IMG/VR virus record: IMGVR_UViG_3300027763_000038
Location: 32,001 to 96,000 of that record
Length of the DNA stretch: 64,000 bases
DNA from: a virus
Reading direction: 5' to 3' (one strand)
Part shown: in pieces, positions 1,892 to 47,063 of the stretch
Numbering within the stretch: position 1 is the stretch's first letter
Layout of the letters: the number at the start of each line of letters is the position of its first letter
Notes under the pieces: generated by a model
Seen by the model: the letters and a program-made list of their open reading frames with translations, nothing else
The model's database searches: none
Told to the model about the DNA's origin: nothing
Made by a program: the position numbers and the translations under genes

Positions 1892-1920
1892 ATTAAACCC
1901 CTTTTACCATTTTAAGAGAT

Positions 1921-26209: not shown

Positions 26210-26244
26210 AATAATAAATGTCCTTTCCCTAAACAAACTTAAAA

Positions 26245-29200: not shown

Positions 29201-30612
29201 GTCTGATTGTTCAATATACCGAGAACTAAATTATTTGTACTAGCTGATGAAACAGCATTAGTGTTGCCCATAACTAAATTATTAGTAACAGATCCACTAA
29301 TATTATTAGTATTGCCTAATATAACAGATCCAGTAATATTTTCAGTAATATTGGATTGACCAATCAATAATATCTGGTCTGGAGTACCACTAGTTAAATT
29401 ATTATTAATACCAATTAAAATACTTTGTGATAAACCATCTTTTGTATTAATATTACCCATACCTAAAAATAATAGCTTATTAGAGTTAGATAGAGACATA
29501 TCATTACCGATAAAAATACCACTAGTCATAGTATTTAAAGATTGATTTGATCCTATGGAGATTAATTTTGATCCTAGAATAGAATCAGAACTACCATAAA
29601 TATTATTATTGTCTCCAGTAACAGAAACTAATGACCCAACAACATTATTAGAATTACCAATTAAATTATTCAAGTTTCCTATGTATATGTTATTGTTGCC
29701 ACTGTTGGTGGCATAGGCTCCAAAAATAATACCTGATGATCCGGTGTTTGAAGATAATTGGGTTAAACCAATACTCATATCTCCATTAAAATTATTATTA
29801 TCTCCCATCAAAATATTGTTTGATCCAGTAAGGGAGTTGGAGTTACCAATAAAAATATTGGATATGCCAGTAATGGCTACAGTATCACCCATAGCAATAT
29901 TGTTAGCTCCAACAAATTTAGAATTATTAACCAGAGCAACAATTTTAGAACCATTAATAGTATTAACACTACCAATAATTAAACCACTATTAGATAATCC
30001 ACTATTATATGCTCCGATACTTGTGATACCCACGCCGGTCACAGCATTATTACCACCAACGACAGTGTATGCATAACCAGAAACGCTATTGTTACCGCCC
30101 AACACTACATTCTTAATATTAGCCCTAAAAACGGGAGTATTGGTACCGCGATTATCAACAGTAAAAAGAATTTCGCCACTAGTATAGCCAGTGATAGGAT
30201 CTAATATCTTAGAGATAATTTGTCCATAGGCAATTTCATTATAACTAGTATCTCTACCAGCCAAATTAATAGTAGCTGGTAAACTTCCTGATAGTGGTGT
30301 TGTTTGGGGATTATGAACTAATAATAGAGTAACCCCAGTAGGACAATTTGTTACGCTTTCAACAATTAGACCATCTTTAGAGCATGGAGCAACAACATGC
30401 AGAATAGCATCTGGTACACCCGTACCAATACCTAATCGTCCAGTTGAGGCATCAAAATACATCAAGCCATTGCCGGTTCCTTTAATGCTAAAATCAATAT
30501 CTAGCTTATTAATATTAAAAGAGCTAGCGACACCAGAGGTGTTTGATAGTTTTATATCTGGTGTTGTACCAGAACCAATATTTAGTATACCGGAAATTGT
30601 TGTGTCAGCCAT
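26245..30612 (-). CDS. tail fibre/spike with long G-x-x-N beta-helix repeat region
   Basis: GRLGIGTGVPDAILHV and RVGINTDSPTSSLSVSG fibre motifs; dozens of (I/V)(I/V)GxxN repeats (YadA-head-like). Confidence 0.75.
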   Translation of the reverse strand: MADTTISGILNIGSGTTPDIKLSNTSGVASSFNINKLDIDFSIKGTGNGLMYFDASTGRLGIGTGVPDAILHVVAPCSKDGLIVESVTNCPTGVTLLLVHNPQTTPLSGSLPATINLAGRDTSYNEIAYGQIISKILDPITGYTSGEILFTVDNRGTNTPVFRANIKNVVLGGNNSVSGYAYTVVGGNNAVTGVGITSIGAYNSGLSNSGLIIGSVNTINGSKIVALVNNSKFVGANNIAMGDTVAITGISNIFIGNSNSLTGSNNILMGDNNNFNGDMSIGLTQLSSNTGSSGIIFGAYATNSGNNNIYIGNLNNLIGNSNNVVGSLVSVTGDNNNIYGSSDSILGSKLISIGSNQSLNTMTSGIFIGNDMSLSNSNKLLFLGMGNINTKDGLSQSILIGINNNLTSGTPDQILLIGQSNITENITGSVILGNTNNISGSVTNNLVMGNTNAVSSASTNNLVLGILNNQTGVYIDSVGTITGSGKRPAGTVINSIVAGINNVVYAGNSHIVVGNKNAISGSNSNTLGSYNNLKNSTSAYNVGNSNSLVGSQLGTVGSKINLVGQESIVFNTADKKMDVFGSGNIVLGYNQVVNNGIAVGTSNKLDGLNNIVYGRNNTLGYTRNTCTMTDVGGTVINIPTKGLLAQYLQGDKILVSFQNPPSVSNTFTRTITAIVEDTIEPITYITLDTPIILDRTNGYYYMNNAFDDNNTASTVVSGLIMPYQRMGGAGGAEVNPVYGSNNIVVGSNNKYPFSSGLILGYNNYVSGVRNIAIGYGLTGVVDDTIYLGTNNSNKMILDNYKIVFNSGKLQQNLIVKSASDSTSVINANLNNNRVGINTDSPTSSLSVSGLFTTTDFKLGFSAPDAYVLTTNTNGVGTWQLPVRLSGDNGGMLFKVTDKGASGITEIAYNPTIKQLGFNLGGYNEVYINSTGLFLNDEAATYKVRIRGSGGVDFARVLFDTDYVNHKINFYNVSGNSGNFHNIGLNSGLTLPVSLTGTYLYVNNNGKLSSYVTRPNTLLFSNSAAYSTGNSSLRWINSQQVMAMGASVDVTEDTVPTNGYDSYYNIILSSNSQVDTVFNNRGLGNRFSVLNSGLIELKGFHISPTGAVAINTPAANLSTYNPKAALYVNGKAWVTELKVGNDTAPSGYYLRTDASGNIRFSNLDINNQFTAYSTDIIGNSYPLNVVSTAQGADGSFITNFGFTKRNSNGSQFTDKDDGAYVAYNGYAWVTASGLKAYQTQVETSNPQSCPGIAFGYKPSVTSTYNSHSFAGGSFNHNDVNRVYDGSSQYVQYYLRTRTTGPNGVGNPLVTNWSKSSVISDETSNNCINFNDFYSLSSAQYDRVWGYKISVSVLWQSGVQGGPQGPRKFAGTYEIEGGVYRSAAGTEFYKFGNENVRYYGDTMPSVMSLSTEIRNTSSIPRLSIVASGGGGWTALWSATARVNQLNHPGANPLYGSV

Positions 30613-33600
30613 TATTTTCTCCCTAAAGCGCCTTCTGTTTGATCACTAAGAGTACCCATAGCTCTACCAACTTCTGCAACAACCATGTTACTGATTGCTG
30701 TTTCACTGAGCTGCTTTAACACTTCTGCTCCATTAAATACTACTTCAACTTTATGATTACCCATAACATTAATAACTGGTGGTAAGTTTATTGCTTTTAA
30801 TTGGCCAATAAATTCTGCAAATTTTGTCGTAAACTGGCTTAATCCATCCATATTGGGTGAGGATGAGCCTCCACTATTAGATACACCACCACCAGCACCA
30901 GATTCATCAGTCATTCCACCATTAGCTAAATACTTAACGCTACCACCACGACTATATCGATTATTGTTTATAGCTTGTAATAAGGGAAGATTTTGCTGGG
31001 CTGATGCTCGGTTAACAACAAACTCGCCCGGTGTTAACATAGCAGGAACAGTATCGCTTCCCCTTGGAATATAAGGAATCATCATTCCATGGTTAGCATA
31101 AATCATTCCACCGTATTGTTTATGAGTTGGTTCGGTGGTTGGAGGTGGGGGTGTTTGTTCTGGTTTTTTCTCTCCTGCAACTGAATTACCAGAAGCTTGT
31201 GATGCTTGTCCAGACATTATTTCGGGATGTTTCTTAAATAATATTCGCCATCCAGCATCAATAGCATCGCCTTCTATTTTTGCTCTTGCTTGACCATTAA
31301 GTATATCTAAAATACTCTTACCATTAACTCCTATTTTGCTAGCTTTTGGATCACGCTTTAAAATTGTATAAGCCTGTAAAGAATTATTGTAAATTGTTGT
31401 TAAATACTTATGTCTTTGTGTGTCTATGTCATATTGTTTTTTAGCATTAGTTTTAATTTCATCAGCTGATAGTTTACCCCATACTGACCAATATTTGTCT
31501 GCTAATCCTTCAGCAGTTAATGACTCATTTATTGCATCTGCTTTTAAAGCATCAAACATTTGTGGACTAGTTTCAGCTTCATTTTTAATTTGTAAGATTA
31601 ATGAGCCAGTTTGAGTTTTAGCGAGTGATCTCTCCATAATTATTTTTTGTTTTTCTTCTTCTGTTGGCGGCTGTGATCCTTTTGGGACACTACTAGATGC
31701 ACCTGCCATATCGGCCCAACCGCCGCCTTTAGCATATATGACTCCTCCCTGAGAATAAGCTTCAGTTTTACCATTATTAATGGCTTTTAATAGAGGTAGA
31801 TTTTTTTGTGTGGCAGCTCTGTTTACTACAAATTCTCCGGGTGTCAACATTGCTGGAACAGTATCTGTTCCTTTTGGTTCATAAGGAATCAACTTGCCTG
31901 TCTGTGCATAAATTACTCCGCCAGAAGCTTTATATTCTGGTTTAAGACTCAAAGGCCCGAGCACTTTACCATTGCTATATTTAAAATCCTGCGGTAAAAT
32001 ACCAGGAACAATTGTTGCATTTCTTTGATAAATCTCTTTTGCTCCTACTTCATTATAATATGTCTCTCTAAATTTATTAGGAAAGTCTATTCCACCAAGC
32101 TCTTCTGGAGATACTGCAACTAAATCATTAATATTGGTAAAAGGATTGTTTTTTAATTTAAATCCTATATCTTGACCAAGCTGTTCTAATGCATCTATTA
32201 GATCTTGATGTCCAGATTGTTGTAAGTCATCAACAGATGCTTTACCTCTAATAAAATCAGCTTCAGCTTTAGCTTCAGGATTTTTTGATATCAACTCTAA
32301 CAGAGTAATATTCAAAGCTTTAGCTGTATTTTTAAGTTTTTCTTCTGTTCTTTTGATATATTGTGATTTTACAGATATTAATTCTTCTCTGAATTTTTTA
32401 GCAGCCTCTATTGCTGCTTTTTGTTTGGGTAAATTATCTACTATTTCTTTTAGATAATTTTTTCTATCTTCTACATTTTGTTTATTATTATATTCTTTGT
32501 TATTTTCTTTGTTTTGTTCTGTTCTCTCTTTTGATTCTTTTCTTATTTGTGCATCAGATTTTTCTACAACAGTTATAAGTTTTCCATCTTTGCCTCTTAT
32601 GGTACTTGCTACTTCTCCATTTTCTTTTCTTTGTTGTCCCTGTTCTGTTAAAGATCTTCCTTTTGGATCTTGCGGATCTGGATCATTTAAGCCTTTAAAT
32701 TCACTACCACTTATTGCTAATAGTCTTTCAAATGCTGCTGTTGGTCCACCATCTTTCAGATATACTACTCCACCAGAGGAATAACCCTTACTATCACTAC
32801 CACCTCCACTATTAATTGACTTTAATAAATCAAGATTATTTCGTGTAGCCTTAGCATTAACAACGAATTCGCCAGGAGTTAGCATAGCAGGAATAGTATC
32901 TGTGCCGCGAGGTTGGAAATTAATTAATTTGCCTGTACTAGCATAAACTGGTCCACCATTGTCAAATCCATATGCTTTCATTATCTTTTTAAGTAATTCT
33001 TTTGCTAAACTATTCTTTGAAAACTCACTAGTTTTCATAGATTGTATAATATTTGTAAATACTTCTCTATTATCATCTACTAACTGTTGACCACTATAAG
33101 GAGAATTAGTAACCTCTTTTAAAGGAGCCCATCCTTTTGGATCTAGAGCAAAATTTTGAATATCTGGTTTCAAACTATCTAATACGTCTGTCTTCATAAA
33201 CATATTATTTTTATCTTGTAAAGCATGTCCCAATTCATGTTTTAATAGTTCTGGATCTTGATTTTTACTAGAAATTTTCTTTGTTGTTGCATCATATTGT
33301 GCATCATATTTAGGAGATTGACTATTGGGTTCAAATGATTTTACTCCAAATTGTGCGTCAGCATATTCTTTTAATTTTTTCTTACCTTCTTCACTACTAG
33401 TATATGGATATAATTGTTGAGCTAGATCAGAACTTAATCCTTTAATTAAACCTCCTGTAGAAGCATATATAACTCCACCCTTTTCTCTATATTGTGGAGG
33501 TAATGGTGGTGGTCCTTTTGGTGGTAACGGAGGTGGTCCTCCTGCTTGTCTTGGAAGTGGAGGTGGACCATTTCTAAGTGGTGGGGGTGGTGGAGGTAGT

Positions 33601-36600
33601 GGTTTTGGTGGAACGGCAACTGCTGGTGCTTGCTCTGGAGGATTTAATAATTGATTTCCCTGATTTATTCCAGCCTCAATATTTGAAATTTGACTTTCTA
33701 ATGATCTAACTTGAGTCTTAAATGCTTTTATCTGAGCTTCTTCAACCCTAATTTGTTGGAATAGAAGGGTTTGTTCTAAGGATTTTCTGAGTGCTGGAGT
33801 TACTCCTTGTACATGATCTAAATTTCCATTCTCTAATGCTCTATATAGCATATCTACTTCTTTTGTATTACCAAAATTTCTACCAGTATTAATAGTTCCG
33901 CCAGGACCCATAATCATATGGGCGTCGCTATTTCCTCCTCTGATTTGTTGATCTAGTCTACTAATCCCTTCAGGATCTTTAGCAAATTTTTGAATATCTT
34001 CTAGAGTTAATTTTCCATCTTGTTTTATACCATTAACTATCAAGCCCCTCGATTGTCTAGCTATTAATTCTTCTGGAGTTTTAGCTAAAGGTTCAAGAAT
34101 TGCTGATTTTATATAGGCCAAAAATTCATCAGATTGTACTGTTGACTGAGTGACTTGTTTTCCTGTGGCTCTAGCAAAATCTTTTAATAAAAGATCTGTA
34201 TTTACTTTGTCTCTGGTAAGAGTATATTTTGTATCTCTAAAAGAAAGCTTACTACCAAAAGTCTCTCTTCCATCATGAATACCTTCCAATAAGTCTTTTT
34301 CTTTATTATCTCCCAAAAGAGCCTTTCTCCTGTCAGTAGCTTCTTTGATCTTTTGGTTTATTGTTGTTACTTCTGACTGAACTTGAGCTTTTCGTTTGGT
34401 TAGCTCTGCAACTTTTTGTTGTACCGCAGTATTTGTTGCGGATTTGGGTTTTGGAGGCAATGTTCTGGCGGCAGATTTTTGACCTTTACCTCTTGCTCCT
34501 CCTTTTGACCTAGCTGCGCCCGCAACAGCAGTAAACATACCCCAAGCTGCGCCAGCTCTTTGATATAGTGACTCACCCATTAAACCTGGTCCTGGTGGTG
34601 GGCCATAAGCACTAATTTCTCCTTCTGGAGTATGCCACTGTCTCCCACTGTTGTCCGTAGTTATTTTTGCTTGTTGTGTTTGTAATTTTGCCTGTTGATT
34701 AGCAAAGTCTAATTCTCCTTGGGTTGGAGTCATTTCTGGCATATAGTTCTGATTTTGTTGGACCAATCTTGGGTCCATTAATCGTGATCCTGGAACTAGC
34801 ATACCGTCTTGAGCATAGATAAGTCCACCCATACTACGATATTCTAGATTAGGATCAGCTCTAAGCAATTTAGCTTTATTTTCATACATATTCAATCGTT
34901 TGATCGGATCTTTTACTTTATTAAGGTCTGCTTGTGTCTGTTTACCTAATCTAATCTTAGGAAATTGAAATTCTCTTATAATAGCATCTATTTTTTCTTG
35001 AGGAGTTTGTGGTTTTGCAGCAGGGGCGGGGCCACCAGCGGGTACAGGAGCACGAGCACGACCAGGATCGCCAGCAGGAATACCATTAACAACTGTTGCA
35101 TCAGCAGTTGCTGCTTTTACTGTTTCTGGGTCTAATTTATGTCTAGCTTCTGCGGCTGTATTGTATTTATGAATTCCTCCGCTAAAAAGAGTAGCACCAG
35201 CTACACCACCACCCAACAATAAAGCTCCTGATTTTAAACGACCAGCAATGTTTTTTGTTATAGTAGAAAAAATACCTCCTTTGGCTCCTGATATATCATC
35301 GACAACTTTCGCTGCATCACCCAAGTCTCCTTGAATAGCAAGTGTTTTAATACTATCTATCATTTTTGCAAATGCTGACGTTGCACCTGTTGTATTCTTT
35401 GCAATATCAAATTGTTTTGTTATATCAGCGGCAGATGATAAGTCTAAACCTCCATTCTTTATCTTCGTTTGAAGTTCCGATAGAGCTTTTAATTCATCGG
35501 TATTTAATCCTGCTGGCATGTTTTTTGCTGTTTGAGTTTTAATAGCATCTAATACTGCATCTGACTTTAATGGTTTAAATTTCTTTAATGTTGCAAATAG
35601 TCCCACACCGGCCATAGCTGCTGTTGCTGCTTTTGCTGCTGTTGCTGCTTTTACTCCTGCTGCTATTTTAGCAGCTCCTGCTACTTGTCCAACGCCCTCA
35701 ACAGTACTTGCCAATGATAAACCAGCACCTGTCAAATCTCCTCTCATTACGTCAACAACAGCAGCAGCAACATCAAAAGGTATGCCAACACCAGGAGTTA
35801 AGCCTAACATACTATATTTTAAACTTAGATCATCTAATGACATTTCTTGCTCTGGAACAATATCATCTCCTGTTCCTAATAGTCCATCTCTACCAGATAC
35901 AAAAAGTATTTCTTTATTTCTCTTTTTAATAGTTTCATAATAAGAGATTATTTTTTTTGAAGCTAAGAACCTTGTGTCTTTATCCATTTCTGGAGATGAT
36001 TTACTGGTAACTAAATTGTTTATATCTTCCTGTAATGATTGTTCAAAAAGCTCCATATCCTTTTGATACTGTTGAAGCATTTTAGACTGAGCTTCTTGTT
36101 TGGCTTTTTGCTGTAATTTGATATTTGTATTATAATCTACTGTTTTAAACTCATTTCCACTTATTACTGTGGGTATAGAGACTCCTCCATTAACCGATAA
36201 TGAAGGAACTTGAGTTCCGTCCTGAGCATAAATCACACCACCTTTACTTAATGCTTTAGGATTACCACCTTGATTAATAGCCTTTAATAATGGCAAATTC
36301 TCTTGGGTGGCTTTTCTATTGATTACAAACTCTCCCGGAGTAAGCATCGCAGGAACAGTATCTGTGCCTCTTGGCTGGAACTGGATCATTTGTCCACCAT
36401 TAGCAGCATAAACCATGCCACCAGTCTGTAATCCTTGAGCAACTCTTGCTCTAAACCAATTAGGAGAAGGCAACCGGCCAAACTTAGAACCCAAGCCCAA
36501 AGTTACTTGAGCATCATTAGCTTCTTGATAAATATCAGTAAAACTATTATCAGATGCGCTATCAAAAAATGCTGGAATTCTAGCTTCTGGTTTTAATTTT

Positions 36601-39600
36601 TTATCAAACAAATAGTCTTGACCTAACCATTTGTCGCCATCTCCATGATACCATTTTTCTAAAGATTGTACATTTTTAGAAATAAAAGCCATGGTATTTC
36701 TATCAAAATATGGAATACCAATACCTTCTTTAAAATTTGACAAATCATTGACGAGTTTATCCATCAAAACAAATCTTGTATCACTATCATCAAATTCAGT
36801 ATATGGATTAAATACTAAATCTATTAGTTCTTGCAAAGTGGTTGGTAGATTGTCTTCGGATAGTTCTTTTTGTTTTCCTAATGAATTTATTCCAACTTTT
36901 CTGCTTTTTCCCTTGGCTGTATTAGCAAGTAAATTTTTCCAATCATCATTAAGGGCTAGTCCTGTAATTCTTCTCATTAATGTTCCAGCACCAAGACTAC
37001 GAAATAGATCTATTAATTTTAAATCACTAGCCACAAATTGTCCAAATAATGAACTATTGCCATTAGCAAGACCAGAAAAAGCCTGAGATGCTCCAGAAGC
37101 TAGTGTCCATAGTTCTTTGAGTCCTTGATATTGATTAGGATTATTTGATTTTGTACCAATATTACTTAAATATGCTCCAAACTGTTCCATAACTCCAGAA
37201 GCATAAGCTGCCATATTTTTGGCACCGCTTGGTTTCAAATTAACCATATTAGGAATTTTACCAATATATCTTGATAACCAACTATTGCTTAAACCTGGAA
37301 CTTTTGCTCTACCAAATATGCTTAATGCTCCCTTAGCTGTTGCTCTAACAGCTTTTGGAAGATCCGCATCACCTACTCCTTGGTTACCTAAAGCTTTTCC
37401 TTCTATCTGGTCAGAACCTTCTGCTGCTTGTATTTTTGCCGCGTCTAGTGCTTCTAGTATATGTTTGCCAACATTAAATGTTGTTATTGAATCCCTATCA
37501 AATGGTGTTATAAGAGTATCTACGTCTGGGAAAGTCATATCTTGACTTTTTATAAAAGATCCCTTGAATTTAGAGCTTAATGAATCTAATAGTTTTTGTC
37601 TTTCTCCATTATCTTTTCCGCCATTAACAATTAATTTGATATAATCTGTCAAATTTGTAGTAACATTTCCAACATTAGACCCATCTGCTATAGATTGTAA
37701 TAATTCTTGTCCTGTAAATCTGTTTACTCCGTTCGTCGTAATTCTTCGTTTACTAATATCTAAAGATTCAAAAAAGGTTTTATCATTTTTTGCTGGTAAC
37801 AGGTATTTACTAATATGGGGATTAAATTCATTAGTGTCTGGCTTAAATAGTTTACCTTCCCATTCGTCATAAGAAACTTTAAAGTCTAAATTTTGACCAT
37901 TAAGACTAAGTGTATCTTTAAATTGTTTTTGAATATTAAAGGAGTTTAATAGATCATTTACAGGTATCGATAAGGTTTCGGGTGGTAATCTTTTCATAGA
38001 AATTCCACCAGGATTTTTAGCAGTCAATTCTTTTTCTATTTTTTTTCTTAAATCAGCATCAAGATCTTCTAAAGATGCATTAACAATATATGGAAATGGT
38101 TTAGCAGGAAGATCCATAGCCCCAGCTTTATCTACAGAAAAAATATTAATTGGAACATCTTTTACAAAGTCTCCAATAGCGGGCTTCTTTAAATTCTTTC
38201 CACTAAATACTATATTCTTGTCTTTGGCTGCTATTGGATTAGCAGCATATTCCATTATGAGCTTATTTATAGCTTCTGTAGCTGAGTCTTGTAGAATCAT
38301 TAAAGAACCAGCATTTTCAACTCCTTTTATAGTAGGAAAATATTTTTCAATTAAAGTTTTACCTTTAATAATTTCTCCAATAGAATTGCCATTATAAACT
38401 TTAGATAATTGTGCTTGAATTTCTAGAGCATGTTTAGCATCTTCATCAATAACAGTATCCTCTTTAAATGTTGGAGCATTCAAGAAATCTCTTGTTTTTT
38501 CATATTCTGCATAAGCTTCATCATTTTTAATTTTTAAATCTGCAATTTTATCATGGGAAATAATATTTTTTGTCAAATTATTCATTACTAGATTTCTACC
38601 AACAATACTGCCTTTAGGCTTAAAGTCTAAACCAGCTAATGATGATCCTGGTGCGGCACCTACTGGAGCTTGGAAGAATGGAGGATCTATAGATATTGCA
38701 TTTTCTTTAACTCCACCATTTGTTGCTTCATATATTTGGTACATTCTATTTGTAGCCACGTCCAAAGTTGGCATCCCGCCAGCTTCATCGGGAACAATAA
38801 TACCATATGGATTACTTATTATATTTGAACTAAAAGCATCAGGAATATTTAGTTTAAAATCAGTAATATTTGGCACAGGACCATAATTATTAGGAAGATC
38901 AAACTTTGGTAGTTCCCATTTAATGTTATTTTCTGCTGCTTTTCTTTTATATTCTTCAAAATTTAATTCTTTAATATTTGTAGTCCCAAAAGAACCCTTG
39001 TCTAATGAATTTATATGAAAAAAAGTATCATCTGATTTAATAGCAGAGAATCTGTTTAATAAGGCTTCTTCTGCCGGATCTCTTTGATAATCGACCTCTT
39101 TATTATTTTTTCTTCCTATTATTGGACCAAAACCAGGAACTACTACTCCAGCAGTTGGTTCTAGGTCTTTTAGATCATAATTATCTTTTGTTGGTTCAGG
39201 CGTTTGTTTTCTACTATCAAGAAAAGTATAAACACTAGGAGTATTATATAGTTTATTTTGAGCTTTAAGCAAATCGTTGATAACGTTTGGAGTATTTAGA
39301 TTTAAAAGTTTAATTTGACTTATACTAGAAGACTTAGTAAAATCAGAAGGATCTCCTGCATCATGAACGAAACCTCCACGATCATAATATCTTACAGAAC
39401 CACCAGAACTATATTTATGACTATTAATAGATTCTAATAAAGATCTATTATTTGCAGTTGCTTTTTTATTAACAACAAATTCACCAGGAGTAAGCATGGC
39501 TGGTACAGTATCACTACCCTTTGGCTGAAAATTAACCATTTGGCCAGCTTCAGCATAAATAATACCACCAGCTGCTCTTGCTTGTGGCTTTACTGGTACT

Positions 39601-42600
39601 AAATTATTTATATTAGCTGCTATATCTACCAGTTGTTGGTTAAAAAATGTTAGTGTAACATCTGATAAAGCAGTTGCTAGAGCTTTAGCGTTAGCTTCTG
39701 TTGTATCTTGTGCTAAATGTTGATCAATATTAGCCAAATGTTCATTGGCACTACTTTGTAAAGCTATAGCCTCATTATAATAAGTCATAGCAGCAGCAAC
39801 AGCTGGATCTGCTTGTGGATTTCTCAAATTATTCAAGACATCCATCATCATGGGACTAATACCCATACCAGATTCTTTTAACATACTTTCCAAAACATTG
39901 GCACGAACATTAGATGCTTGTCTACCTTCTCCTAAGAAAGGCATAATATCTTGTAATGCACCGAGAGTTTCTTTTCTTTCATTAGCAAAAGCTGTTTGAG
40001 CCGCTCTCATGGCTTCAAAACCAGATGCTCCACTTTGTAATGCTTCAAAATATGCTTTTTGAGCACCTGTACTACTATTGATAGTATTAATTTGACCATT
40101 AATATTTTTTTGTAATCTATTTAGCGCATTTCCTAAAGAAGCTGCTTCGTCTGGGGTTGCTGTAGCAAGTTTTTCTATGAAAGATACTTTACCAGCATTT
40201 CTTTGTTGAACATCTTGAATTTTTTGCATAGCTTCTGAAGCATTTTCCGTATTATCTGCCAAAAATCTTAAGGCATTATAGCTTTCTCTTAGCGCAATAC
40301 TATTATTTTGTACATCTTTACTGAATTTAGCAAAATCCTCTGCTCCAGCAGCACCTCTTTCTCCTGCTTGTGCTCTGGAACTTTCTGCTATATTTTTTTC
40401 TGTATTTAGTTTAAGAATTTGATTAAATATTTTATCTGGATCTGTTACTCCTCCCGTAAATCTTCCGACTCTTGCTTGTGTTCTTGCTCTTGATTTTTCT
40501 AAATTTATAGATTCACCAAAAACTTTAGATAATTCTACTCCACTATTAATAAGAATATCTTCTGCTTTTCTTAGTTTTTCTCTGCTAGAAATTTCAAGAT
40601 CAATAATTTTATTGATATTAGATGAATATGTATTAAGAGCACTATTAAAATGATCTAAAGCCTTAACTACAATATCTGATACTCCTTTTGCTGTGTCTAA
40701 AGTAGAACTAAGTCCAGCAACCTTTTCCTGTAAATCACCAAAAGATATTTTATCATCACCAGATTTTCTTAGATCAGCAATAGCTTTACCAATCTGACCA
40801 GATAATTTATCAACAAACTCTGGTGGCAAACCAAGATCTTTTAATGCTTTGTTGACATTAGTTGTAATTTTAGAACCAATAATCTCATCATTAGCTTCTG
40901 GATTTTGTTGAACAGTATCATTTATGGTTTTCATTATTGTATTTTCGGCTGTTTCGCCAACTTTTAATAATGACTTAACTAGTCCTGAAGATTGTCCAAA
41001 AAATCCTGCTCCTGTACTTTGTGCTTGTGATACTGATGCCCTGCTATAAGCTCTGGGATTACTGATAATATTTGATGTTTGTGAATTGATATTTTGAAGA
41101 GCAGCAGAGCCTGTCAAAGAGGCAATATTAGCATCTATAGATTTTTGCATACTGTCTAAAGCATTGGAAGTAGCAGATATTGCTTGCTCCATATTTTTAA
41201 ACATTCTATTAAGAGATCCAGTAAAAGCATACGTGGATCTTTGTAAAGCTTGTGCTTCTTTTTCTCTAAGAACAATATTAACTTGTTGTCTCGCTTTTTC
41301 TTCACCAGCATTTTTTATAATACTTTCTTTAATGCTGTTTATCTGGGCATTACCGAGACCACTATTTTCAACTTCTAATATTTTTTGTCTAATAACAGCA
41401 TCAGCATTTGCTAATGATTCAGAAAATTTATCAAAATTAGGATCAGAAGTAATATCTTTAACACTTTCTCCTCTTTTAGCTCTCTCTTTAAAGCTCTCAA
41501 GTAAACTATCTCCTAATGCACGACCCATAGCTGCTTGTTCTTGAGCTAGTTGAGGAATAATCTTATTAAATTCTACATTAGTATCCTCAGCACTATTACT
41601 TGCTCTATAATAGGCTTGACTTCCACCTAGTCTTAAAATATCAGATCTCTGTCTTAAACCTTCTTCTCCTCCAACTCCATTTCCAGTAAAAGTCGCTAAA
41701 GCATCAAAAAGATTAGTAAAAGTATAAAGAGTTCTTGTACTTAAAATATTTATTTGATTTGCAAATGCTGTTGATGCAGCTTCTAGCTTGTTATTGAGTC
41801 TGGTAAAATCCAAATTTTTAACATCTTTGCGTAGTACTTCAAATTCTTGTTCAACACCCTTCATCGCAAACTCTAGTTTTTTACTTTCTACTTCGAGTTT
41901 AAACTCGTTCATAGCATTTGTCATATCTTTAATAACAGAAACAGCAGTAAAAATAAATGATCCCACCATTAATAAGCGACGACCTGCTCTAACAGCATTA
42001 GCTCCCATATCACCGACTTCAGTACCAGCATCTCTTAAGTGTTGTTCAAAGTCCTGCAATTGTGAAATAACACCAATAGCAACACCAGCTGACTGACTAG
42101 CTGTGTTCAAACCAGCAGCAGCAGAAGCTTGACCAGCACTTGCTTTTGTATCCATTTGTTGACTAATCAACGAACCAACAGTAATAATACCGCCAGCCAT
42201 TAATAATCCTCTATTTCCATTATTACGATCTCTTGTTCCTGTATCTCTTGATCCAGCAGACCTAGCAGCTTCTTCTACCGCTTGTCTTCTGGCTCGAACT
42301 TCGGCACTTATAACTTGTTCTACATCTCTTTCTAGTCCAGCTCTTATTCTGGCTGCTCGTGCTAAATTACCATCAAGTCGAGCTTCTTCCGCCATAGCAT
42401 GTCTTCGTTGTCTAATATATTCTTGATTCATTTGATCAAGAGTATCTGCATCTCTCATCAGAGCCATCATGGTTCTTTCAAGATCATCACCAGTAGCTCC
42501 TATGCCAGCTAAATCTACACCTCCACCAACACCAGTAAGAACACCGCTTGCATTAACATTTTCAAAAGCTTGTGTTCGTCTAGCTCCAGCACCAGCCCTA

Positions 42601-45600
42601 ACTTCTGCTTCTACTTCTTCATCTGTTAATGTTCCAGCTGCTGTTGCTGCTGCTCTAGCAGTTACTGTTAATCTTTCAAGCTCTTCGTCCACCATGCTCA
42701 ATGCTTCTTGTATCTGTCTGCCATTAACATTGCCTAGTTGTTGTCTTATTCTAACTTCATTACGAGCTTCTTGCTGAGATTGCTGTAATGCTCTTTGTAG
42801 ATCATATAATACTGTGGCACTAGCTCCAGCTGCTCTGGCCATTAATATATCAGCATTATAAGCTCTTTCTGCTTCTGCTGCTGTGGCCTGATATCCTCTT
42901 CTTAATAATTGACCAGAACGTGATGATGCTACTCCAAGTTCTGATAATACTTCAGCTAGTTCAGAAAGTCTTTGTGCTGTATTTCCACTAACTCCTATAG
43001 TTTCTGTATTGACCGTATTTGGTCGTGCTGCTGGACCAGCCCTACCACCAAAAAATAGTCTTTGTACAGCACCTCCTGTGGCAAATTCTTGGACTCCTCC
43101 TACTAATCCACCACTATTAAATCCAGATACTTTATCTGCATGGTTTAGTCTATTAAGAGTTGGTGTTCCTATTCTACTGGCAGTCTTTTTATTAATAACA
43201 AACTCGCCAGGAGTTAATAGTGCAGGAACAGTGGTGTTTATAGAGCCTCCAGCAGCCTTCCTGTTTAATGAACTTAGTTTATTTGCTCCGATAGTTTGTA
43301 CTGCTTTTTTACGAATAACAAAGTCACCAACATTCAAATTAGCAGGAACCGTGTCTTGACTGCCAACTCCAGGAACTAATCCACCATCGGCGTATCCTCT
43401 AGCTTTAAGATAATTACCAATTTGACCTTTTAGTTCAGCAGGGCCGTTGAGTGTTAGTTTAGCATCAGTGGGGATATTTGGTGGAAGTTTGAAGTATTTA
43501 GAAGCATCCTTAAGACCGTCTGGGAAGTCGATACCATAATTAGTAGCAGCTTTATTAGCAATTGGTCCACCAAGCTGATGTATAATACTTTCAGCTATAT
43601 ATCCATGAGCATTAGCCTCACCCATTTTTTTACGATCAGAAGCCTTGACCTTTTTATTTGCATAATGATAAACATTCATTCCTGCTGCTCTTGCAGCATC
43701 AATATTTCTCTTATCATCATCAATAAAGGCACCTGGGTTAGCCTGCATATATTCAACTTTAAGTTGAGCAATTTTTTCAGCAGTATTATCTGGACCACCA
43801 ACGCCTTCAAGGTTGCGTATTGGAAGATTCTTACTAGCTAACCATTCACCAATCAAACCCATAGTATTTTTTGGTCTGGCAGAAATCACATGTAAATTAT
43901 CAAGTAACTGTGGGGTTTTTCTAACTTGAGCAACAAGAGCTAGTCCTAATTTACTAAGTGTAGCATTTTTTAAAGCATCCCTTACTTTATCTTTATCAGA
44001 AAATTCACTAAATCGTGGTTGTTTTGGATCAGCTAAAATTTTGTCAGCACCAAAAGCTAATGTTCTATCAAAGTCAGAATATATAGGTCCAACTTCTTTC
44101 AAAATCTGCCTGATCTGCATATTTTTAGTTGATTTTGCTGAAACAGCGTTCATTGCTTGAGTCATTCTCTTAATATCTTTTCCAGCAGCTTCTTTATCTA
44201 GAACGCCACTAGTAATTCTAACCTTAACTGGATTTTTTAATCCCGGAATTTCCATTCTATCAGTTGTGGGAAAAGCTCTTCCTTTGAATCCAGCGGCCCC
44301 AAACAAAAGACCATCTGTAGTTGCTTTTTGTATATCAAGATTATTTGCTTTTTTAATACCAGAAGTTTTCTCTGTATATTTTGCTAAAATTTTATCTTTG
44401 ATAACTTGTTCTGATGGAGTTAATGAATTTCTTTTCTTTAATATTCTTTGTATATCACCAGCATTTGATCCAGTGTCTTTAATAACTTCATCTAGAGTAA
44501 GAACTCTGAATATATCTGTAGAAGTAGCAGCTTTACCTGATGTTGGTGTTACAATACCAGCATCAACAAATTTACGAACTGAACCACCACTGTTAAATCC
44601 TGGTACTTTATTTTTTTGTTGCGTTTGTATCCAGCTATAAAACTTATCTTTTTGATTAGCTTCCCAAAAATAATCTAGATTACCTAAGAAAACATTAGGA
44701 TCTTTATCTTTTTTATTATTCTCTTTAAATAATCCATTTTTACTTCCTGCAAATCCAACCTGATTTTTATCAATTCTATATCTCAACATTTTACTAACCA
44801 AATCGATATCTTCAGTATCACTAGTTTTGAACTTAGCCTCACCAATTTTTTGTATAGCCTGATTTTCAGCTTTTTGAATTAGATCAACAGGATAATTAGT
44901 TTTATTACTAGCTGATTCCCAACCCTGTTTTAATTTAGAGATTATTAAAGTTTCATATGCTTTTCCCCAACGATTTTCTGCGCTTCCTAGTTTACCTACC
45001 TCAGTTTCTTTCTCTGACACCGCCCTTTTTCTGTTCTTTTGATTTTTAGAAGATTGGATAATATCATCAAGCTTTGCTCTGTTCTCTCCGCTAACATCGA
45101 CACCAGCATAGCTTTTATATCTTTTAGAGGTTGAGGCTTTTTCTGATGCCATATCCCAAATCTTTTTAAAGTCCGCAGGCTTTAAATCTATTGATCTTGG
45201 GACTATTCTAATTTTTGCTGAGTCCCCAACTGCTTCTATATTAGTTTTTCCAATAGCTTTCTGGATTGTGGATGATCCATCTCTTGTTAGCAATTGATCA
45301 ATAGTATAAGACTGAGTCAATCCACCATTACTAAATTTTTGTATTCTACCACCATTTGCTTTATTAAGCCTATGAAGATTGTGAGCACCAATAGCTTTAA
45401 CAGCACTTTTACGGATAACAAATTCACCAGGAGTTAATCTTGCAGCAATACTATCAGAATCTCCTTGACCGGGTACCAAACCACCAGTAGCAAATCCTGG
45501 GGCATTATTTCTTCTGCCTCCTCCAGTAAAACCTCTACCAAAACCACTAGCAAATTGGGTAATAGCTGAAGCACCTTTAACAGCGGCGAATAGTGTTATG

Positions 45601-47063
45601 ATTGGTAAAAGTTCTTTAGCAGCATCGGCAACTTTAATGAAAGCATTAGCTAAACTCAACCCTACTGTTACCATCTTCTGAAAACTATCAGTATTTCCAA
45701 CACTACGAATGAGTGTTAAAAATTCTTCTCTAGTTTTGGATATTTGGACAGCTAGTGCTAACTGACCTTTAGCAGCGTCTGTGGCTAAAGAGCCTTGTCC
45801 AGCTTGTGCGATCTTTAATGCATCTTGTGCTGTGGTAAATTCTTGAATCAATGGAATAACTTTACCAATTTGTCTAAAACCACCAAGTTCTTCTACTATA
45901 TTAGAAAATTTAAGATCTCTGGGATCTATTTTACCTAAGCCTTCACTTAATAATTGAACAGCTTTATATGCTCCTACAAATTTACCATCTAGATCTGTTA
46001 GATTAACACCATATTCTTTCAAGGCTTCAATAGTGTCACCTCTTTGAATTCTGGTAAAGATTGTTCTTAAGCCAGTGGCAATAGTTTCAGCACTTTCTCT
46101 GGTTGTTGCTCTAACGCTGGTGAAGACCGCAATGAATTCATTAAGAGCATCTTTGCCTTCACTTACTCCTTTGCTAGCTGCGGCAAACACACCACCGGTA
46201 CGCTGAATAGCAGCAATAATATCACTAGATTCCACAGCAAATCTTGCTGATACAGCATTAATGGAACCTAATGCTTTTTCTAGATCATTAGCTCCAATTT
46301 TAAACTGTCTCATTAAAGCAATAGAACCTTCTACTGTTTGATTCATATTATCAAAAGACGGGGTCAAAGCACTCAAAGCCAAAGCATTTAATGCTATTTC
46401 GGTTTCTTTAGCGCTTAAACCAGCTTGAGATAATGTTACTGCAACAGTAGCTAAATCTTTAGCTGCGACACCCAACTGACCAGATAATGAAGCTATAGTT
46501 ACCTGTAATTTACCTAAATTTTCTTTACTTTCACCAGTAACTTGAGAAATACGAGTTATTTGTTTATCAAAACTAATAAATTCTGAAATACCGCTCTTGA
46601 TAGCCCCAACTAATCCATAGATTAATACGGTAGAGCTACTAAATGCAGCAAAACGTCTAACAGCCAAACCAGCTTGATTACCAAATTCTTCTATCTCGGT
46701 TCTAGAGCCAGCGATAGCTCTTTGTGATGCTCTAGCAGAAGCTTGTACTCCTTGCAAAGCAGCAGATATTTGCCCAGCATGATTAGGCATACTTACAGCA
46801 GCAACACCCCTCATTGCATTCATCATATCTCTCATAGCGTTAGCAACATTTGTTGCCGAAGAAGCTGTTGTTGTGAGAGTAGAATTAAGATTATTTAAAG
46901 AAGAGTTTAAACCGGCAATTACTTGAACAGTAGCTGGGTTTATCTTAAGATTAACATTAGCAGAGATCGTACCTAATTGTTTTTTAATGTTAGATACAAT
47001 AACATTAACATTAGATGGTCCCTGTAAATTAATTTGTGCTGTTAAATTAAATCCTTTAGACAT
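30612..47063 (-). CDS. giant tape measure protein (5483 aa) with repeated linker modules and cargo domains
   Basis: N-terminal phage minor-tail/TMP domain (FDKQITRISQVTG...LSQAGLS...SAETIATGLRTIFTRI), position after tail tube and chaperones, SD GAGG, and eight DTVPAMLTPGEFV-type modules. Confidence 0.92.
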   Translation of the reverse strand: MSKGFNLTAQINLQGPSNVNVIVSNIKKQLGTISANVNLKINPATVQVIAGLNSSLNNLNSTLTTTASSATNVANAMRDMMNAMRGVAAVSMPNHAGQISAALQGVQASARASQRAIAGSRTEIEEFGNQAGLAVRRFAAFSSSTVLIYGLVGAIKSGISEFISFDKQITRISQVTGESKENLGKLQVTIASLSGQLGVAAKDLATVAVTLSQAGLSAKETEIALNALALSALTPSFDNMNQTVEGSIALMRQFKIGANDLEKALGSINAVSARFAVESSDIIAAIQRTGGVFAAASKGVSEGKDALNEFIAVFTSVRATTRESAETIATGLRTIFTRIQRGDTIEALKEYGVNLTDLDGKFVGAYKAVQLLSEGLGKIDPRDLKFSNIVEELGGFRQIGKVIPLIQEFTTAQDALKIAQAGQGSLATDAAKGQLALAVQISKTREEFLTLIRSVGNTDSFQKMVTVGLSLANAFIKVADAAKELLPIITLFAAVKGASAITQFASGFGRGFTGGGRRNNAPGFATGGLVPGQGDSDSIAARLTPGEFVIRKSAVKAIGAHNLHRLNKANGGRIQKFSNGGLTQSYTIDQLLTRDGSSTIQKAIGKTNIEAVGDSAKIRIVPRSIDLKPADFKKIWDMASEKASTSKRYKSYAGVDVSGENRAKLDDIIQSSKNQKNRKRAVSEKETEVGKLGSAENRWGKAYETLIISKLKQGWESASNKTNYPVDLIQKAENQAIQKIGEAKFKTSDTEDIDLVSKMLRYRIDKNQVGFAGSKNGLFKENNKKDKDPNVFLGNLDYFWEANQKDKFYSWIQTQQKNKVPGFNSGGSVRKFVDAGIVTPTSGKAATSTDIFRVLTLDEVIKDTGSNAGDIQRILKKRNSLTPSEQVIKDKILAKYTEKTSGIKKANNLDIQKATTDGLLFGAAGFKGRAFPTTDRMEIPGLKNPVKVRITSGVLDKEAAGKDIKRMTQAMNAVSAKSTKNMQIRQILKEVGPIYSDFDRTLAFGADKILADPKQPRFSEFSDKDKVRDALKNATLSKLGLALVAQVRKTPQLLDNLHVISARPKNTMGLIGEWLASKNLPIRNLEGVGGPDNTAEKIAQLKVEYMQANPGAFIDDDKRNIDAARAAGMNVYHYANKKVKASDRKKMGEANAHGYIAESIIHQLGGPIANKAATNYGIDFPDGLKDASKYFKLPPNIPTDAKLTLNGPAELKGQIGNYLKARGYADGGLVPGVGSQDTVPANLNVGDFVIRKKAVQTIGANKLSSLNRKAAGGSINTTVPALLTPGEFVINKKTASRIGTPTLNRLNHADKVSGFNSGGLVGGVQEFATGGAVQRLFFGGRAGPAARPNTVNTETIGVSGNTAQRLSELAEVLSELGVASSRSGQLLRRGYQATAAEAERAYNADILMARAAGASATVLYDLQRALQQSQQEARNEVRIRQQLGNVNGRQIQEALSMVDEELERLTVTARAAATAAGTLTDEEVEAEVRAGAGARRTQAFENVNASGVLTGVGGGVDLAGIGATGDDLERTMMALMRDADTLDQMNQEYIRQRRHAMAEEARLDGNLARAARIRAGLERDVEQVISAEVRARRQAVEEAARSAGSRDTGTRDRNNGNRGLLMAGGIITVGSLISQQMDTKASAGQASAAAGLNTASQSAGVAIGVISQLQDFEQHLRDAGTEVGDMGANAVRAGRRLLMVGSFIFTAVSVIKDMTNAMNEFKLEVESKKLEFAMKGVEQEFEVLRKDVKNLDFTRLNNKLEAASTAFANQINILSTRTLYTFTNLFDALATFTGNGVGGEEGLRQRSDILRLGGSQAYYRASNSAEDTNVEFNKIIPQLAQEQAAMGRALGDSLLESFKERAKRGESVKDITSDPNFDKFSESLANADAVIRQKILEVENSGLGNAQINSIKESIIKNAGEEKARQQVNIVLREKEAQALQRSTYAFTGSLNRMFKNMEQAISATSNALDSMQKSIDANIASLTGSAALQNINSQTSNIISNPRAYSRASVSQAQSTGAGFFGQSSGLVKSLLKVGETAENTIMKTINDTVQQNPEANDEIIGSKITTNVNKALKDLGLPPEFVDKLSGQIGKAIADLRKSGDDKISFGDLQEKVAGLSSTLDTAKGVSDIVVKALDHFNSALNTYSSNINKIIDLEISSREKLRKAEDILINSGVELSKVFGESINLEKSRARTQARVGRFTGGVTDPDKIFNQILKLNTEKNIAESSRAQAGERGAAGAEDFAKFSKDVQNNSIALRESYNALRFLADNTENASEAMQKIQDVQQRNAGKVSFIEKLATATPDEAASLGNALNRLQKNINGQINTINSSTGAQKAYFEALQSGASGFEAMRAAQTAFANERKETLGALQDIMPFLGEGRQASNVRANVLESMLKESGMGISPMMMDVLNNLRNPQADPAVAAAMTYYNEAIALQSSANEHLANIDQHLAQDTTEANAKALATALSDVTLTFFNQQLVDIAANINNLVPVKPQARAAGGIIYAEAGQMVNFQPKGSDTVPAMLTPGEFVVNKKATANNRSLLESINSHKYSSGGSVRYYDRGGFVHDAGDPSDFTKSSSISQIKLLNLNTPNVINDLLKAQNKLYNTPSVYTFLDSRKQTPEPTKDNYDLKDLEPTAGVVVPGFGPIIGRKNNKEVDYQRDPAEEALLNRFSAIKSDDTFFHINSLDKGSFGTTNIKELNFEEYKRKAAENNIKWELPKFDLPNNYGPVPNITDFKLNIPDAFSSNIISNPYGIIVPDEAGGMPTLDVATNRMYQIYEATNGGVKENAISIDPPFFQAPVGAAPGSSLAGLDFKPKGSIVGRNLVMNNLTKNIISHDKIADLKIKNDEAYAEYEKTRDFLNAPTFKEDTVIDEDAKHALEIQAQLSKVYNGNSIGEIIKGKTLIEKYFPTIKGVENAGSLMILQDSATEAINKLIMEYAANPIAAKDKNIVFSGKNLKKPAIGDFVKDVPINIFSVDKAGAMDLPAKPFPYIVNASLEDLDADLRKKIEKELTAKNPGGISMKRLPPETLSIPVNDLLNSFNIQKQFKDTLSLNGQNLDFKVSYDEWEGKLFKPDTNEFNPHISKYLLPAKNDKTFFESLDISKRRITTNGVNRFTGQELLQSIADGSNVGNVTTNLTDYIKLIVNGGKDNGERQKLLDSLSSKFKGSFIKSQDMTFPDVDTLITPFDRDSITTFNVGKHILEALDAAKIQAAEGSDQIEGKALGNQGVGDADLPKAVRATAKGALSIFGRAKVPGLSNSWLSRYIGKIPNMVNLKPSGAKNMAAYASGVMEQFGAYLSNIGTKSNNPNQYQGLKELWTLASGASQAFSGLANGNSSLFGQFVASDLKLIDLFRSLGAGTLMRRITGLALNDDWKNLLANTAKGKSRKVGINSLGKQKELSEDNLPTTLQELIDLVFNPYTEFDDSDTRFVLMDKLVNDLSNFKEGIGIPYFDRNTMAFISKNVQSLEKWYHGDGDKWLGQDYLFDKKLKPEARIPAFFDSASDNSFTDIYQEANDAQVTLGLGSKFGRLPSPNWFRARVAQGLQTGGMVYAANGGQMIQFQPRGTDTVPAMLTPGEFVINRKATQENLPLLKAINQGGNPKALSKGGVIYAQDGTQVPSLSVNGGVSIPTVISGNEFKTVDYNTNIKLQQKAKQEAQSKMLQQYQKDMELFEQSLQEDINNLVTSKSSPEMDKDTRFLASKKIISYYETIKKRNKEILFVSGRDGLLGTGDDIVPEQEMSLDDLSLKYSMLGLTPGVGIPFDVAAAVVDVMRGDLTGAGLSLASTVEGVGQVAGAAKIAAGVKAATAAKAATAAMAGVGLFATLKKFKPLKSDAVLDAIKTQTAKNMPAGLNTDELKALSELQTKIKNGGLDLSSAADITKQFDIAKNTTGATSAFAKMIDSIKTLAIQGDLGDAAKVVDDISGAKGGIFSTITKNIAGRLKSGALLLGGGVAGATLFSGGIHKYNTAAEARHKLDPETVKAATADATVVNGIPAGDPGRARAPVPAGGPAPAAKPQTPQEKIDAIIREFQFPKIRLGKQTQADLNKVKDPIKRLNMYENKAKLLRADPNLEYRSMGGLIYAQDGMLVPGSRLMDPRLVQQNQNYMPEMTPTQGELDFANQQAKLQTQQAKITTDNSGRQWHTPEGEISAYGPPPGPGLMGESLYQRAGAAWGMFTAVAGAARSKGGARGKGQKSAARTLPPKPKSATNTAVQQKVAELTKRKAQVQSEVTTINQKIKEATDRRKALLGDNKEKDLLEGIHDGRETFGSKLSFRDTKYTLTRDKVNTDLLLKDFARATGKQVTQSTVQSDEFLAYIKSAILEPLAKTPEELIARQSRGLIVNGIKQDGKLTLEDIQKFAKDPEGISRLDQQIRGGNSDAHMIMGPGGTINTGRNFGNTKEVDMLYRALENGNLDHVQGVTPALRKSLEQTLLFQQIRVEEAQIKAFKTQVRSLESQISNIEAGINQGNQLLNPPEQAPAVAVPPKPLPPPPPPLRNGPPPLPRQAGGPPPLPPKGPPPLPPQYREKGGVIYASTGGLIKGLSSDLAQQLYPYTSSEEGKKKLKEYADAQFGVKSFEPNSQSPKYDAQYDATTKKISSKNQDPELLKHELGHALQDKNNMFMKTDVLDSLKPDIQNFALDPKGWAPLKEVTNSPYSGQQLVDDNREVFTNIIQSMKTSEFSKNSLAKELLKKIMKAYGFDNGGPVYASTGKLINFQPRGTDTIPAMLTPGEFVVNAKATRNNLDLLKSINSGGGSDSKGYSSGGVVYLKDGGPTAAFERLLAISGSEFKGLNDPDPQDPKGRSLTEQGQQRKENGEVASTIRGKDGKLITVVEKSDAQIRKESKERTEQNKENNKEYNNKQNVEDRKNYLKEIVDNLPKQKAAIEAAKKFREELISVKSQYIKRTEEKLKNTAKALNITLLELISKNPEAKAEADFIRGKASVDDLQQSGHQDLIDALEQLGQDIGFKLKNNPFTNINDLVAVSPEELGGIDFPNKFRETYYNEVGAKEIYQRNATIVPGILPQDFKYSNGKVLGPLSLKPEYKASGGVIYAQTGKLIPYEPKGTDTVPAMLTPGEFVVNRAATQKNLPLLKAINNGKTEAYSQGGVIYAKGGGWADMAGASSSVPKGSQPPTEEEKQKIIMERSLAKTQTGSLILQIKNEAETSPQMFDALKADAINESLTAEGLADKYWSVWGKLSADEIKTNAKKQYDIDTQRHKYLTTIYNNSLQAYTILKRDPKASKIGVNGKSILDILNGQARAKIEGDAIDAGWRILFKKHPEIMSGQASQASGNSVAGEKKPEQTPPPPTTEPTHKQYGGMIYANHGMMIPYIPRGSDTVPAMLTPGEFVVNRASAQQNLPLLQAINNNRYSRGGSVKYLANGGMTDESGAGGGVSNSGGSSSPNMDGLSQFTTKFAEFIGQLKAINLPPVINVMGNHKVEVVFNGAEVLKQLSETAISNMVVAEVGRAMGTLSDQTEGALGRK
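30915..45494 (-). repeat. eight dispersed ~55-70 aa protein repeats within the TMP
   Basis: Approximate copies: 45321-45494, 43245-43394, 43108-43259, 39372-39575, 36217-36428, 32746-32966, 31719-31928, 30915-31115. Half copies (double-GG motif only) at ~44559-44597, 34803-34841, 33450-33492. Confidence 0.92.

Follow-up and report, generated by a model that had tools for sequence, protein, structure and literature searches.

The window analysed here is a stretch of 64,000 nucleotides, corresponding to bases 32001-96000 of a 108,770-bp IMG/VR virus record (IMGVR_UViG_3300027763_000038) for which CheckV gave a completeness estimate of 73%. It carries the gene of a giant tape measure protein (TMP), encoded on the minus strand (Table 1). 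TMPs occupy the tail lumen, from which they are expelled into the host envelope before the DNA follows; their C-terminus lies at the tail tip and exits first. The open reading frame (ORF) comprises 5,483 codons that stay open across 16.4 kb with zero internal stops. Its start (MSKGFNLTAQ...) agrees with those of related proteins, as does the position of its stop, which overlaps the start of the next gene. An earlier reading of the window from its letters, referred to below as the original prediction, had proposed a normal TMP N-terminus followed by effector-like domains strung between copies of a conserved module. The first part was borne out, as the N domain matched both PF10145 (5.8e-21, 75.7 bits, cut-off 33.2) and TIGR01760 (2.4e-24, 86 bits, cut-off 28.8) above the curated cut-offs. 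The gene order would fit a tail block with small chaperone-like genes on one side and large distal tail genes on the other, and tail-fibre-like genes lie upstream, but the immediate neighbours match no family. Judged from its sequence, the 5,483-aa protein is a TMP, and it belongs to an uncultured phage lineage with genomes of roughly 140-200 kb.

The eight full modules of about 70 aa (GG...DTVPAxLTPGEFV...GG) were confirmed in three ways, by regular expression, by BLAST of chunks of the protein against itself and by a hidden Markov model (HMM) built from the copies; the three half copies reduced to the GG motif were confirmed as well. The domain i-Evalues of the modules range from 2.5e-18 to 4.4e-39, which is far beyond chance. 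The half copies are individually weak (HMM E 0.03-0.7), yet each of them lies at a cassette junction. Each module consists of two Gly-Gly arms (GGxxYAxxG) around a DTVPAxLTPGEFV...L..IN core, and the consensus of 58 copies from 13 TMPs reads a.GG.vya..G......P.gtDTVPAmLTPGEFVvn.kA......lL..iN...y..GG.v.y...GG. No Pfam family covers the module, and the BLAST comparison revealed no other repeats within the TMP. As DNA, the eight copies share just 44-66% identity and their longest exact match spans 18 nt; they are therefore old copies kept by selection on the peptide and not recent duplications.

Table 1. Features of the TMP, from N- to C-terminus, and of nearby genes in the window (S, segment between modules; M, module; all on the minus strand).
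Feature	Residues (aa)	Position in window	Remarks
Whole TMP gene	1-5483	30612..47063	5483 aa, no cysteine
N domain	1-520	45504..47063	TP901/PhageMin_Tail-type TMP domain; PF10145, TIGR01760
M1	521-585	45309..45503	HMM 1.4e-22
S1a	587-826	44586..45305	PD-(D/E)xK-like cassette; E...YPVD (724-729)...GEAKF (741-745)
Half copy 1	819-838	44550..44609	GFNSGG, S1a/S1b joint; HMM
S1b	827-1126	43686..44585	Helical/beta lead-in and predicted HAD phosphatase domain; AF2, Foldseek, VIA, motifs
S1c	1127-1220	43404..43685	Small conserved element; 73/162 relatives
M2 and M3	1221-1276 and 1278-1335	43059..43403	Tandem pair; HMM
S2	1336-2492	39588..43058	Conserved core, 1157 aa
M4	2493-2568	39360..39587	HMM 5e-39
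S3	2569-3541	36441..39359	C-terminal third common to 29 relatives
M5	3542-3619	36207..36440	HMM
S4	3620-4074	34842..36206	Rare cassette (4 relatives); hydrophobic Ala-rich stretch near 3752-3770
Half copy 2	4075-4091	34791..34841	GGLIYAQDG, left joint of S5+S6 insertion; HMM
S5	4092-4522	33498..34790	Coiled-coil-like cassette; ends in polyproline tract
Half copy 3	4523-4541	33441..33497	GGVIYASTGG, S5/S6 joint; HMM
S6	4542-4696	32976..33440	HExxH zincin-like cassette; HELGH 4609-4613
M6	4697-4776	32736..32975	HMM; homology with closest relative (P0006) resumes here
S7	4777-5042	31938..32735	Predicted long helix; AF2
M7	5043-5119	31707..31937	HMM
S8	5120-5312	31128..31706	Helical bundle, AF2 pLDDT 65-89; common to 12 relatives
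M8	5313-5387	30903..31127	HMM; position of the single module of ordinary TMPs
C-tail	5388-5483	30615..30902	96% identical in closest IMG/VR relative (L034); kept in 64-83 relatives
Large structural-region protein		57736-63861	2,041 aa; no credible PHROG/Pfam match
Large structural-region protein		26245-30612	1,455 aa; no credible PHROG/Pfam match
Large structural-region protein		24602-26236	544 aa; no credible PHROG/Pfam match
Large structural-region protein		19105-24573	1,822 aa; no credible PHROG/Pfam match
Tail-fibre-like gene		56566-57720	Upstream of TMP
Tail-fibre-like gene		52895-53827	Upstream of TMP

A single element of this kind had been attributed to lambda-type TMPs in the original prediction, and it is real. 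Lambda gpH has FATGG (733), GEFV (754) and YATGG (778), and the module profile matches it at residues 731-798 in a direct search and at 750-788 in the PDB set (8iyk, E 0.003). The best PDB match is gp16 of mycobacteriophage Douge (8zdo), with two copies at 964-1034 and 1410-1463 of its 1,699 aa; the paper describing it models only residues 1658-1699 and does not mention the module copies (PMC13033339). In Pseudomonas phage JBD30, gp46 gave a weak but clear match (1018-1068, 8.3 bits), which coincides with residues 1022-1066, predicted by its authors to form a hook of two helices and a beta-hairpin by which the TMP is anchored in the opened baseplate once the C-terminal domain has been lost (PMC11445458). 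PHROG TMP families also match near their C-termini. No significant module was found in T5 pb2 by direct profile search, and none was detected in a scan of gp96 (5,002 aa) of Thermus phage P23-45. By profile similarity, the module is homologous to the single gpH element of lambda and to the JBD30 gp46 hook, in agreement with the proposal that a gpH-type element has been multiplied. Ordinary TMPs have one module, 100-140 aa before the C-terminus; here, the end of M8 is 96 aa from the end of the protein, and it is the seven additional copies that depart from the single-module family.

The copy number of the module in other phages, a check put forward with the original prediction, was assessed by searching the profile of 58 modules against 1.84 billion cluster representatives. 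This returned 28,124 representatives at E<=1e-3, 1,411 of them at E<=1e-30, and the best 150 of the 28,124 matches range in length from 1,522 to 7,872 aa, each with 3-11 matched stretches. In IMG/VR, 32 relatives of the N domain (54-81% identity) were found on contigs of up to 202 kb. Four genomes estimated to be 92-100% complete (137-201 kb) encode TMPs of 3,960-6,533 aa with 5-9 modules in a single open frame, and in none of the 34 loci examined are the modules split over more than one ORF. The set of giant TMPs used below (n=163) comprises that of the window, 12 from related IMG/VR contigs and 150 database cluster representatives. In this set the first module starts at about aa 522, the last one ends a median of 140 aa before the C-terminus, and the lengths of the inter-module segments peak at 800-1,200 aa. 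No described multi-module TMP was found in a literature search of incomplete coverage.

Conserved frame and exchangeable cassettes

Clustering the 954 segments of the 163 TMPs gave 288 clusters, 209 of which are singletons. The N domain was present in 141/163 giant TMPs, an S2-like core in 142/163 and C-tails in 83 + 33, while S1-like segments occurred in 59 and S3-like ones in 29. The N domain, the core of about 1,150 aa and the C-tail are thus conserved and most other segments are variable. S2 had been counted among the cargo segments, which its presence in most relatives does not bear out; its helix-favouring composition and one hydrophobic stretch (aa 1697-1715) suggest instead a helical, partly hydrophobic part of the ruler or channel. 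The C-tail may be the hub-binding end.

Comparison with relatives, another check proposed at the outset, revealed that segments are swapped at modules and GG joints, and supports the view that the modules delimit unrelated segments. P0006, a TMP of 4,878 aa, is the closest relative, with 80% identity over aa 1-4090 and 62% over aa 4677-5483; it lacks S5+S6, a block of 606 aa whose limits coincide exactly with GGxxYAxxG joints. GGxIYAxxG stands at the left junction in either protein, after which P0006 continues into a module core and the TMP of the window into S5. S5 ends in GGVIYASTGG and is followed by S6, and homology with P0006 restarts at the GG arm of M6. Homologs of S5 occur at other positions in P0014 and P0015 (53% and 43% identity), with GGxxYAxxG on both sides. 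L034, the closest IMG/VR relative (81% N-domain identity), is devoid of S1a, and its homology begins at the half copy near residue 823.

Breakpoints were then counted in 281 pairs of TMPs with N domains at least 70% identical, as the 885 internal ends of long high-scoring segment pairs (HSPs). Of these, 56% fell inside a module and 49% within 5 aa of a GG, compared to 11% of random positions in either case, with the caveats that the pairs are non-independent and that conserved modules naturally lengthen HSPs. These caveats notwithstanding, homology rarely stops in the middle of a segment, and we regard the GG arms as the sites of cassette gain, loss and replacement. A search of IMG/VR for S5+S6 returned just two contigs, L040 and L041 (3300010885_046520 and 3300027763_000039), which resemble S5 over its first 97 residues alone (84% identity) and differ from there on; exchange therefore also takes place below the level of the whole cassette. 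Concerning the same cassette, its polyproline tract (33495-33644, minus strand; aa 4474-4523) comprises 50 residues, 52% of them proline in PPPLPP repeats, just before the GG joint. Such a tract also ends the S5 homolog of P0014, and tracts of this type are found in 15/163 giant TMPs.

Enzyme-like segments

Pfam, PHROGs and NCBIfam searches of the whole TMP and of each segment returned only the N domain, plus sub-threshold HAD and zincin matches. The HAD motif reported in the original prediction is nevertheless real and conserved. The core of the domain (about aa 991-1140) was modelled by AlphaFold2 (AF2) from 22 sequences with a predicted local distance difference test (pLDDT) score of 84-94. 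The four HAD motifs follow in order, i.e., DFDRT (motif I, 997-1001), ISARP (II, 1060-1064), K1102 (III) and FIDDD (IV, 1113-1117), and DxDxT, ARP, K and DD hardly vary among 21-25 homologs of 30-45% identity. The top Foldseek matches of the S1b model are all HAD proteins. In VIA, the predicted model matched the 3'-phosphatase of T4 Pnkp with Z 12.9 and a root-mean-square deviation of 2.7 over 126/142 residues, followed by Pnkp1 (Z 12.2) and T4 PNK (12.1), the next HADs scoring at most 10.3. The curated HAD cut-off was not reached (TIGR01509, 19.2 bits vs 29.4) and there was no Pfam HAD match; the domain is assigned to the HAD superfamily because of its fold and motifs, and belongs to no curated family. 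The prediction that S1b holds a capless, T4 Pnkp-like HAD phosphatase is well supported, and at least one inter-module segment would therefore have a real enzyme fold with conserved catalytic residues, as had been claimed. Next to it, S1c is an element of 94 aa with invariant D, G, K and T (GxDFPxGL...TDAK.T) that always stands directly before a module. The idea, formed by eye, that S1a and S1c are paralogs was rejected (hhalign probability 0.1%).

Two further segments carry catalytic patterns. In S1a, the pattern YE...YPVD...GE[AVI]K is kept in 5/5 sequences (the segment of the window and four homologs), down to 30% identity. No Pfam or NCBIfam family matched S1a, and in the ESM Atlas it scored only 0.85-0.87, with a weak lead to Tox-REase-7 at 0.85. 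By its conserved motifs alone, S1a may be PD-(D/E)xK nuclease-like. Homologs of S6 were found in 12 of the other 162 giant TMPs; HExxH is kept in 12/13 aligned sequences, window included, a truncated 13th being without it, and a conserved Glu lies downstream of it. ESM Atlas scores of S6 were 0.96-0.94 and included a 'Metalloprotease family protein' cluster, while matches to curated families remained below cut-off (Peptidase_M91, 16.6 bits vs 25, E 0.01; PhageMetallopep, 14.6 vs 23.7). S6 may be zincin metallopeptidase-like, again going by conserved motifs only.

Among the catalytic motifs originally listed, those of HAD were therefore upheld, and the HExxH and PD-(D/E)xK-like patterns were upheld as conserved motifs. 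The pre-toxin was not, as S4 matched no pre-toxin family at E<=5 (Pfam) or E<=0.1 (NCBIfam). The broader claim that the segments are effector-like enzymes holds for the predicted HAD fold; it does not extend to the others as a group, since most match no family, S7 and S8 are predicted to be helical and S2 is a conserved core.

Roles of the joints and the passengers

We favour, with a probability of about 0.7, a reading in which the TMP is a ruler doubling as a carrier, with conserved ruler parts and exchangeable passenger cassettes set at gpH-type joints. The gpH-type module, single in ordinary TMPs, would have been multiplied in this lineage. The conserved parts would build and plug the tail, and the passengers, spliced in at the joints, would exit together with the TMP before the DNA and reach the host at infection without any gene expression. 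We infer that, in this way, the proteins brought into the host by the tail probably form a changeable set. Head-proximal of the S2 core, the putative T4-Pnkp-like HAD phosphatase and the nuclease-like segment would lie next to the DNA end; tip-proximal of it would be the candidate zincin and most of the variable cassettes, several of them segments of no known family. Such a layout would agree with the tail topology described above. The tip-side zincin would parallel the T5 peptidase, and the head-side nucleic-acid segments the P23-45 polymerase.

The avoidance of cysteine is also relevant here. There is no cysteine in the 5,483 aa of the protein and there are 36 in the 677,356 aa of the 163 relatives, 142 of which have none, while most genes neighbouring the TMP encode 0.3-4% Cys. 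Lambda gpH, T5 pb2, P23-45 gp96 and JBD30 gp46 have 0 Cys each. The enzyme-like cassettes are under the same constraint as classical TMPs, and avoidance along the whole chain would fit every part being stored in, and expelled from, the tail lumen. It may be a general, little-noted hallmark of TMPs.

Several known systems resemble parts of this arrangement. In lambda, gpH (853 aa, matured to gpH* and gpHC) loses a C-terminal piece of about 14 kDa from its Gly-rich region, and this piece, gpHC, stays bound to the hub protein gpI (PMC12617516). Judged by its mass, a piece of 14 kDa would begin around aa 705-735, immediately ahead of the first GG arm. The homologous module lies about 55-120 aa from the C-terminus of this Cys-free protein; gpH differs in having one module, no inserts and no known enzyme, whereas the TMP of the window has about 4,000 residues more and enzyme-like cassettes. 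JBD30 gp46 is alike in the coincidence of the module match with the hook, and unlike in its single copy and weak match, the hook and the cut at residue 1066 both being predictions. T5 pb2 is cut during assembly into pb2* and a C-fragment with a metallopeptidase motif; the fragment remains in the tip, and its release into the periplasm has been proposed (10.1101/2022.09.20.507954). T5 pb2 thereby sets a precedent for a zincin carried close to the C-terminus of a TMP, although it has one passenger in 1,219 aa and no detectable module. P23-45 gp96 carries a functional virion RNA polymerase at its N-terminal, head-proximal end (PMC10770324). This Cys-free TMP of 5,002 aa with an enzyme is a precedent for nucleic-acid enzymes on the head side, but it has no module and no cassette array has been described in it. 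Douge gp16 may be a small-scale version of the same plan, limited to two module copies.

A more general parallel is offered by polymorphic toxins and phage polyvalent proteins, in which a conserved delivery scaffold is combined with exchangeable enzymatic parts in host-virus conflict (Iyer et al., 2017, cited in PMC7824862). Pfam searches of the TMP and its segments detected no domains shared with them, nor a MuF-type head-associated anchor with known conflict domains, the anchor here being the TMP domain. The scaffold is a tail ruler, the joints are specific to TMPs, and the cassettes are internal and multiple instead of forming one C-terminal tip.

TMPs with one enzyme are already known (T5 peptidase, P23-45 RNA polymerase, mycobacteriophage hydrolase motifs). 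Piuri and Hatfull reportedly described Rpf or peptidase motifs in mycobacteriophage TMPs in 2006. What appears to be new is the array of conserved joints that would make the ruler a carrier of several exchangeable passengers, none being found in the literature searched. The pattern is widespread, given the 28,124 clusters that match the module, about 1,400 of them at E<=1e-30, and at least three copies in each of the best 150. It offers a handle on the role of the conserved Gly-rich/GEFV region of lambda-type TMPs and on the cutting of gpH, as well as on which proteins siphophages deliver before any gene expression. The cassette joints also suggest where a tail-delivered protein might tolerate foreign segments.

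Regarding the module itself, a docking, hinge or refolding-joint role of the internal copies seems somewhat likelier than cleavage at all eight. We lean to the former because of the conservation over about 70 residues, the match to the JBD30 hook and the inaccessibility of internal copies inside a closed tube. In the original prediction, the module had been taken for a processing or tail-threading signal and the TMP for a magazine of effectors. A polyprotein of that kind, cut at or beside every module at maturation or ejection, would yield up to nine proteins stored in the tail, with the C-terminal pieces leaving first; we consider this, and cleavage at each module copy in general, less likely than not. 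The cut-polyprotein reading draws on the lambda gpH cut in the Gly-rich region adjoining the homologous module (PMC12617516) and on T5 pb2, cut between its hydrophobic stretch and its peptidase domain with both pieces staying in the tail (10.1101/2022.09.20.507954); the predicted disorder of the modules and the coincidence of cassette limits with GG arms would suit it as well. However, the cut site and the protease of lambda are both unidentified (PMC12617516), the T5 protein is cut without a detectable module, and some 70 conserved residues far exceed the needs of a protease site. Internal modules would also lie deep in the closed tube, beyond the reach of a protease unless the cleavage is autocatalytic, and the candidate zincin, restricted to 12 of the other 162 relatives, cannot account for processing in general. 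Furthermore, the gene is split at a module in no relative among the 34 loci, and the polymerase of P23-45 reportedly functions as part of the fusion (PMC10770324).

In a bolder version, which we consider rather unlikely, the module would be a self-contained release signal, autocatalytic or triggered by the hub, and the tail a magazine of up to nine proteins stored unfolded. If so, release would follow a fixed order before the DNA, tip-proximal pieces acting on the envelope first and head-proximal nucleic-acid enzymes last. Well over a thousand phage lineages would then possess a natural, reprogrammable system for injecting proteins, with cassettes exchangeable at the GG arms, and the magazine would explain the long-unexplained cleavage of lambda gpH.

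It is also conceivable, but improbable, that the whole chain simply measures a very long tail, the variable segments being fast-evolving spacers, the enzyme-like folds relics and the modules periodic structural nodes such as chaperone-binding, tube-binding or trimer-register sites. In its favour, S7 and S8 are predicted to be helical and S2 has a helix-favouring composition, no family was assigned to most segments, and the 5,002-aa TMP of P23-45 accompanies an extremely long tail (PMC10770324); moreover, uneven evolutionary rates can mimic TMP 'mosaicism' (PMC10684548). On the other hand, relics would decay, while the HAD motifs are nearly invariant at 30-45% identity, HExxH is kept in 12/13 sequences and the E/D/ExK pattern in 5/5. 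In addition, S5+S6 is cleanly present or absent relative to a relative of 80% identity, and a distant TMP contains S5 at 53% identity, which argues for exchange and not for rate variation. An artefact, i.e., a chimeric assembly or a run-on of several genes, is extremely improbable, as only the unusual size speaks for it, while the ORF extends uninterrupted over 16.4 kb, its start and stop match those of relatives, and 162 other TMPs from independent samples, one from a genome with terminal repeats, follow the same plan.

Certain observations weigh against the carrier reading that we favour. Most segments have no recognisable family, so that for most of them we infer the role of cargo, and in Pfam searches of nine further relatives the TMP N domain was the sole match. 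No homolog of S1 was found as a free-standing protein of 348-1110 aa. The zincin model is not confident, S6 having an AF2 pLDDT of 25-40 in a run over aa 4523-5483 (mean 46.9), and the modules are predicted to be disordered in AF2 monomer models (pLDDT <50). Folded domains would not fit the lumen, and storage in an unfolded state with subsequent refolding must therefore be assumed. Finally, the lineage is known here from sequences alone, and the neighbouring tail genes match nothing that would indicate the tail type.

Neighbouring genes

The four large proteins encoded downstream of the TMP (1455, 544, 1822 and 2610 aa) have no credible PHROG or Pfam match, the two Pfam matches obtained being far below cut-off. 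Current libraries provide practically no annotation for the tail and baseplate of this lineage. The 2,610-aa protein (11266-19098, minus strand), which lies downstream of the tail genes, contains 69 Cys (2.6%), in sharp contrast to the Cys-free TMP. As for the tail-fibre-like pair upstream of the TMP, one member has collagen-like repeats, and the other carries an N-terminal domain common to tail fibre, tail spike and hyaluronidase families.

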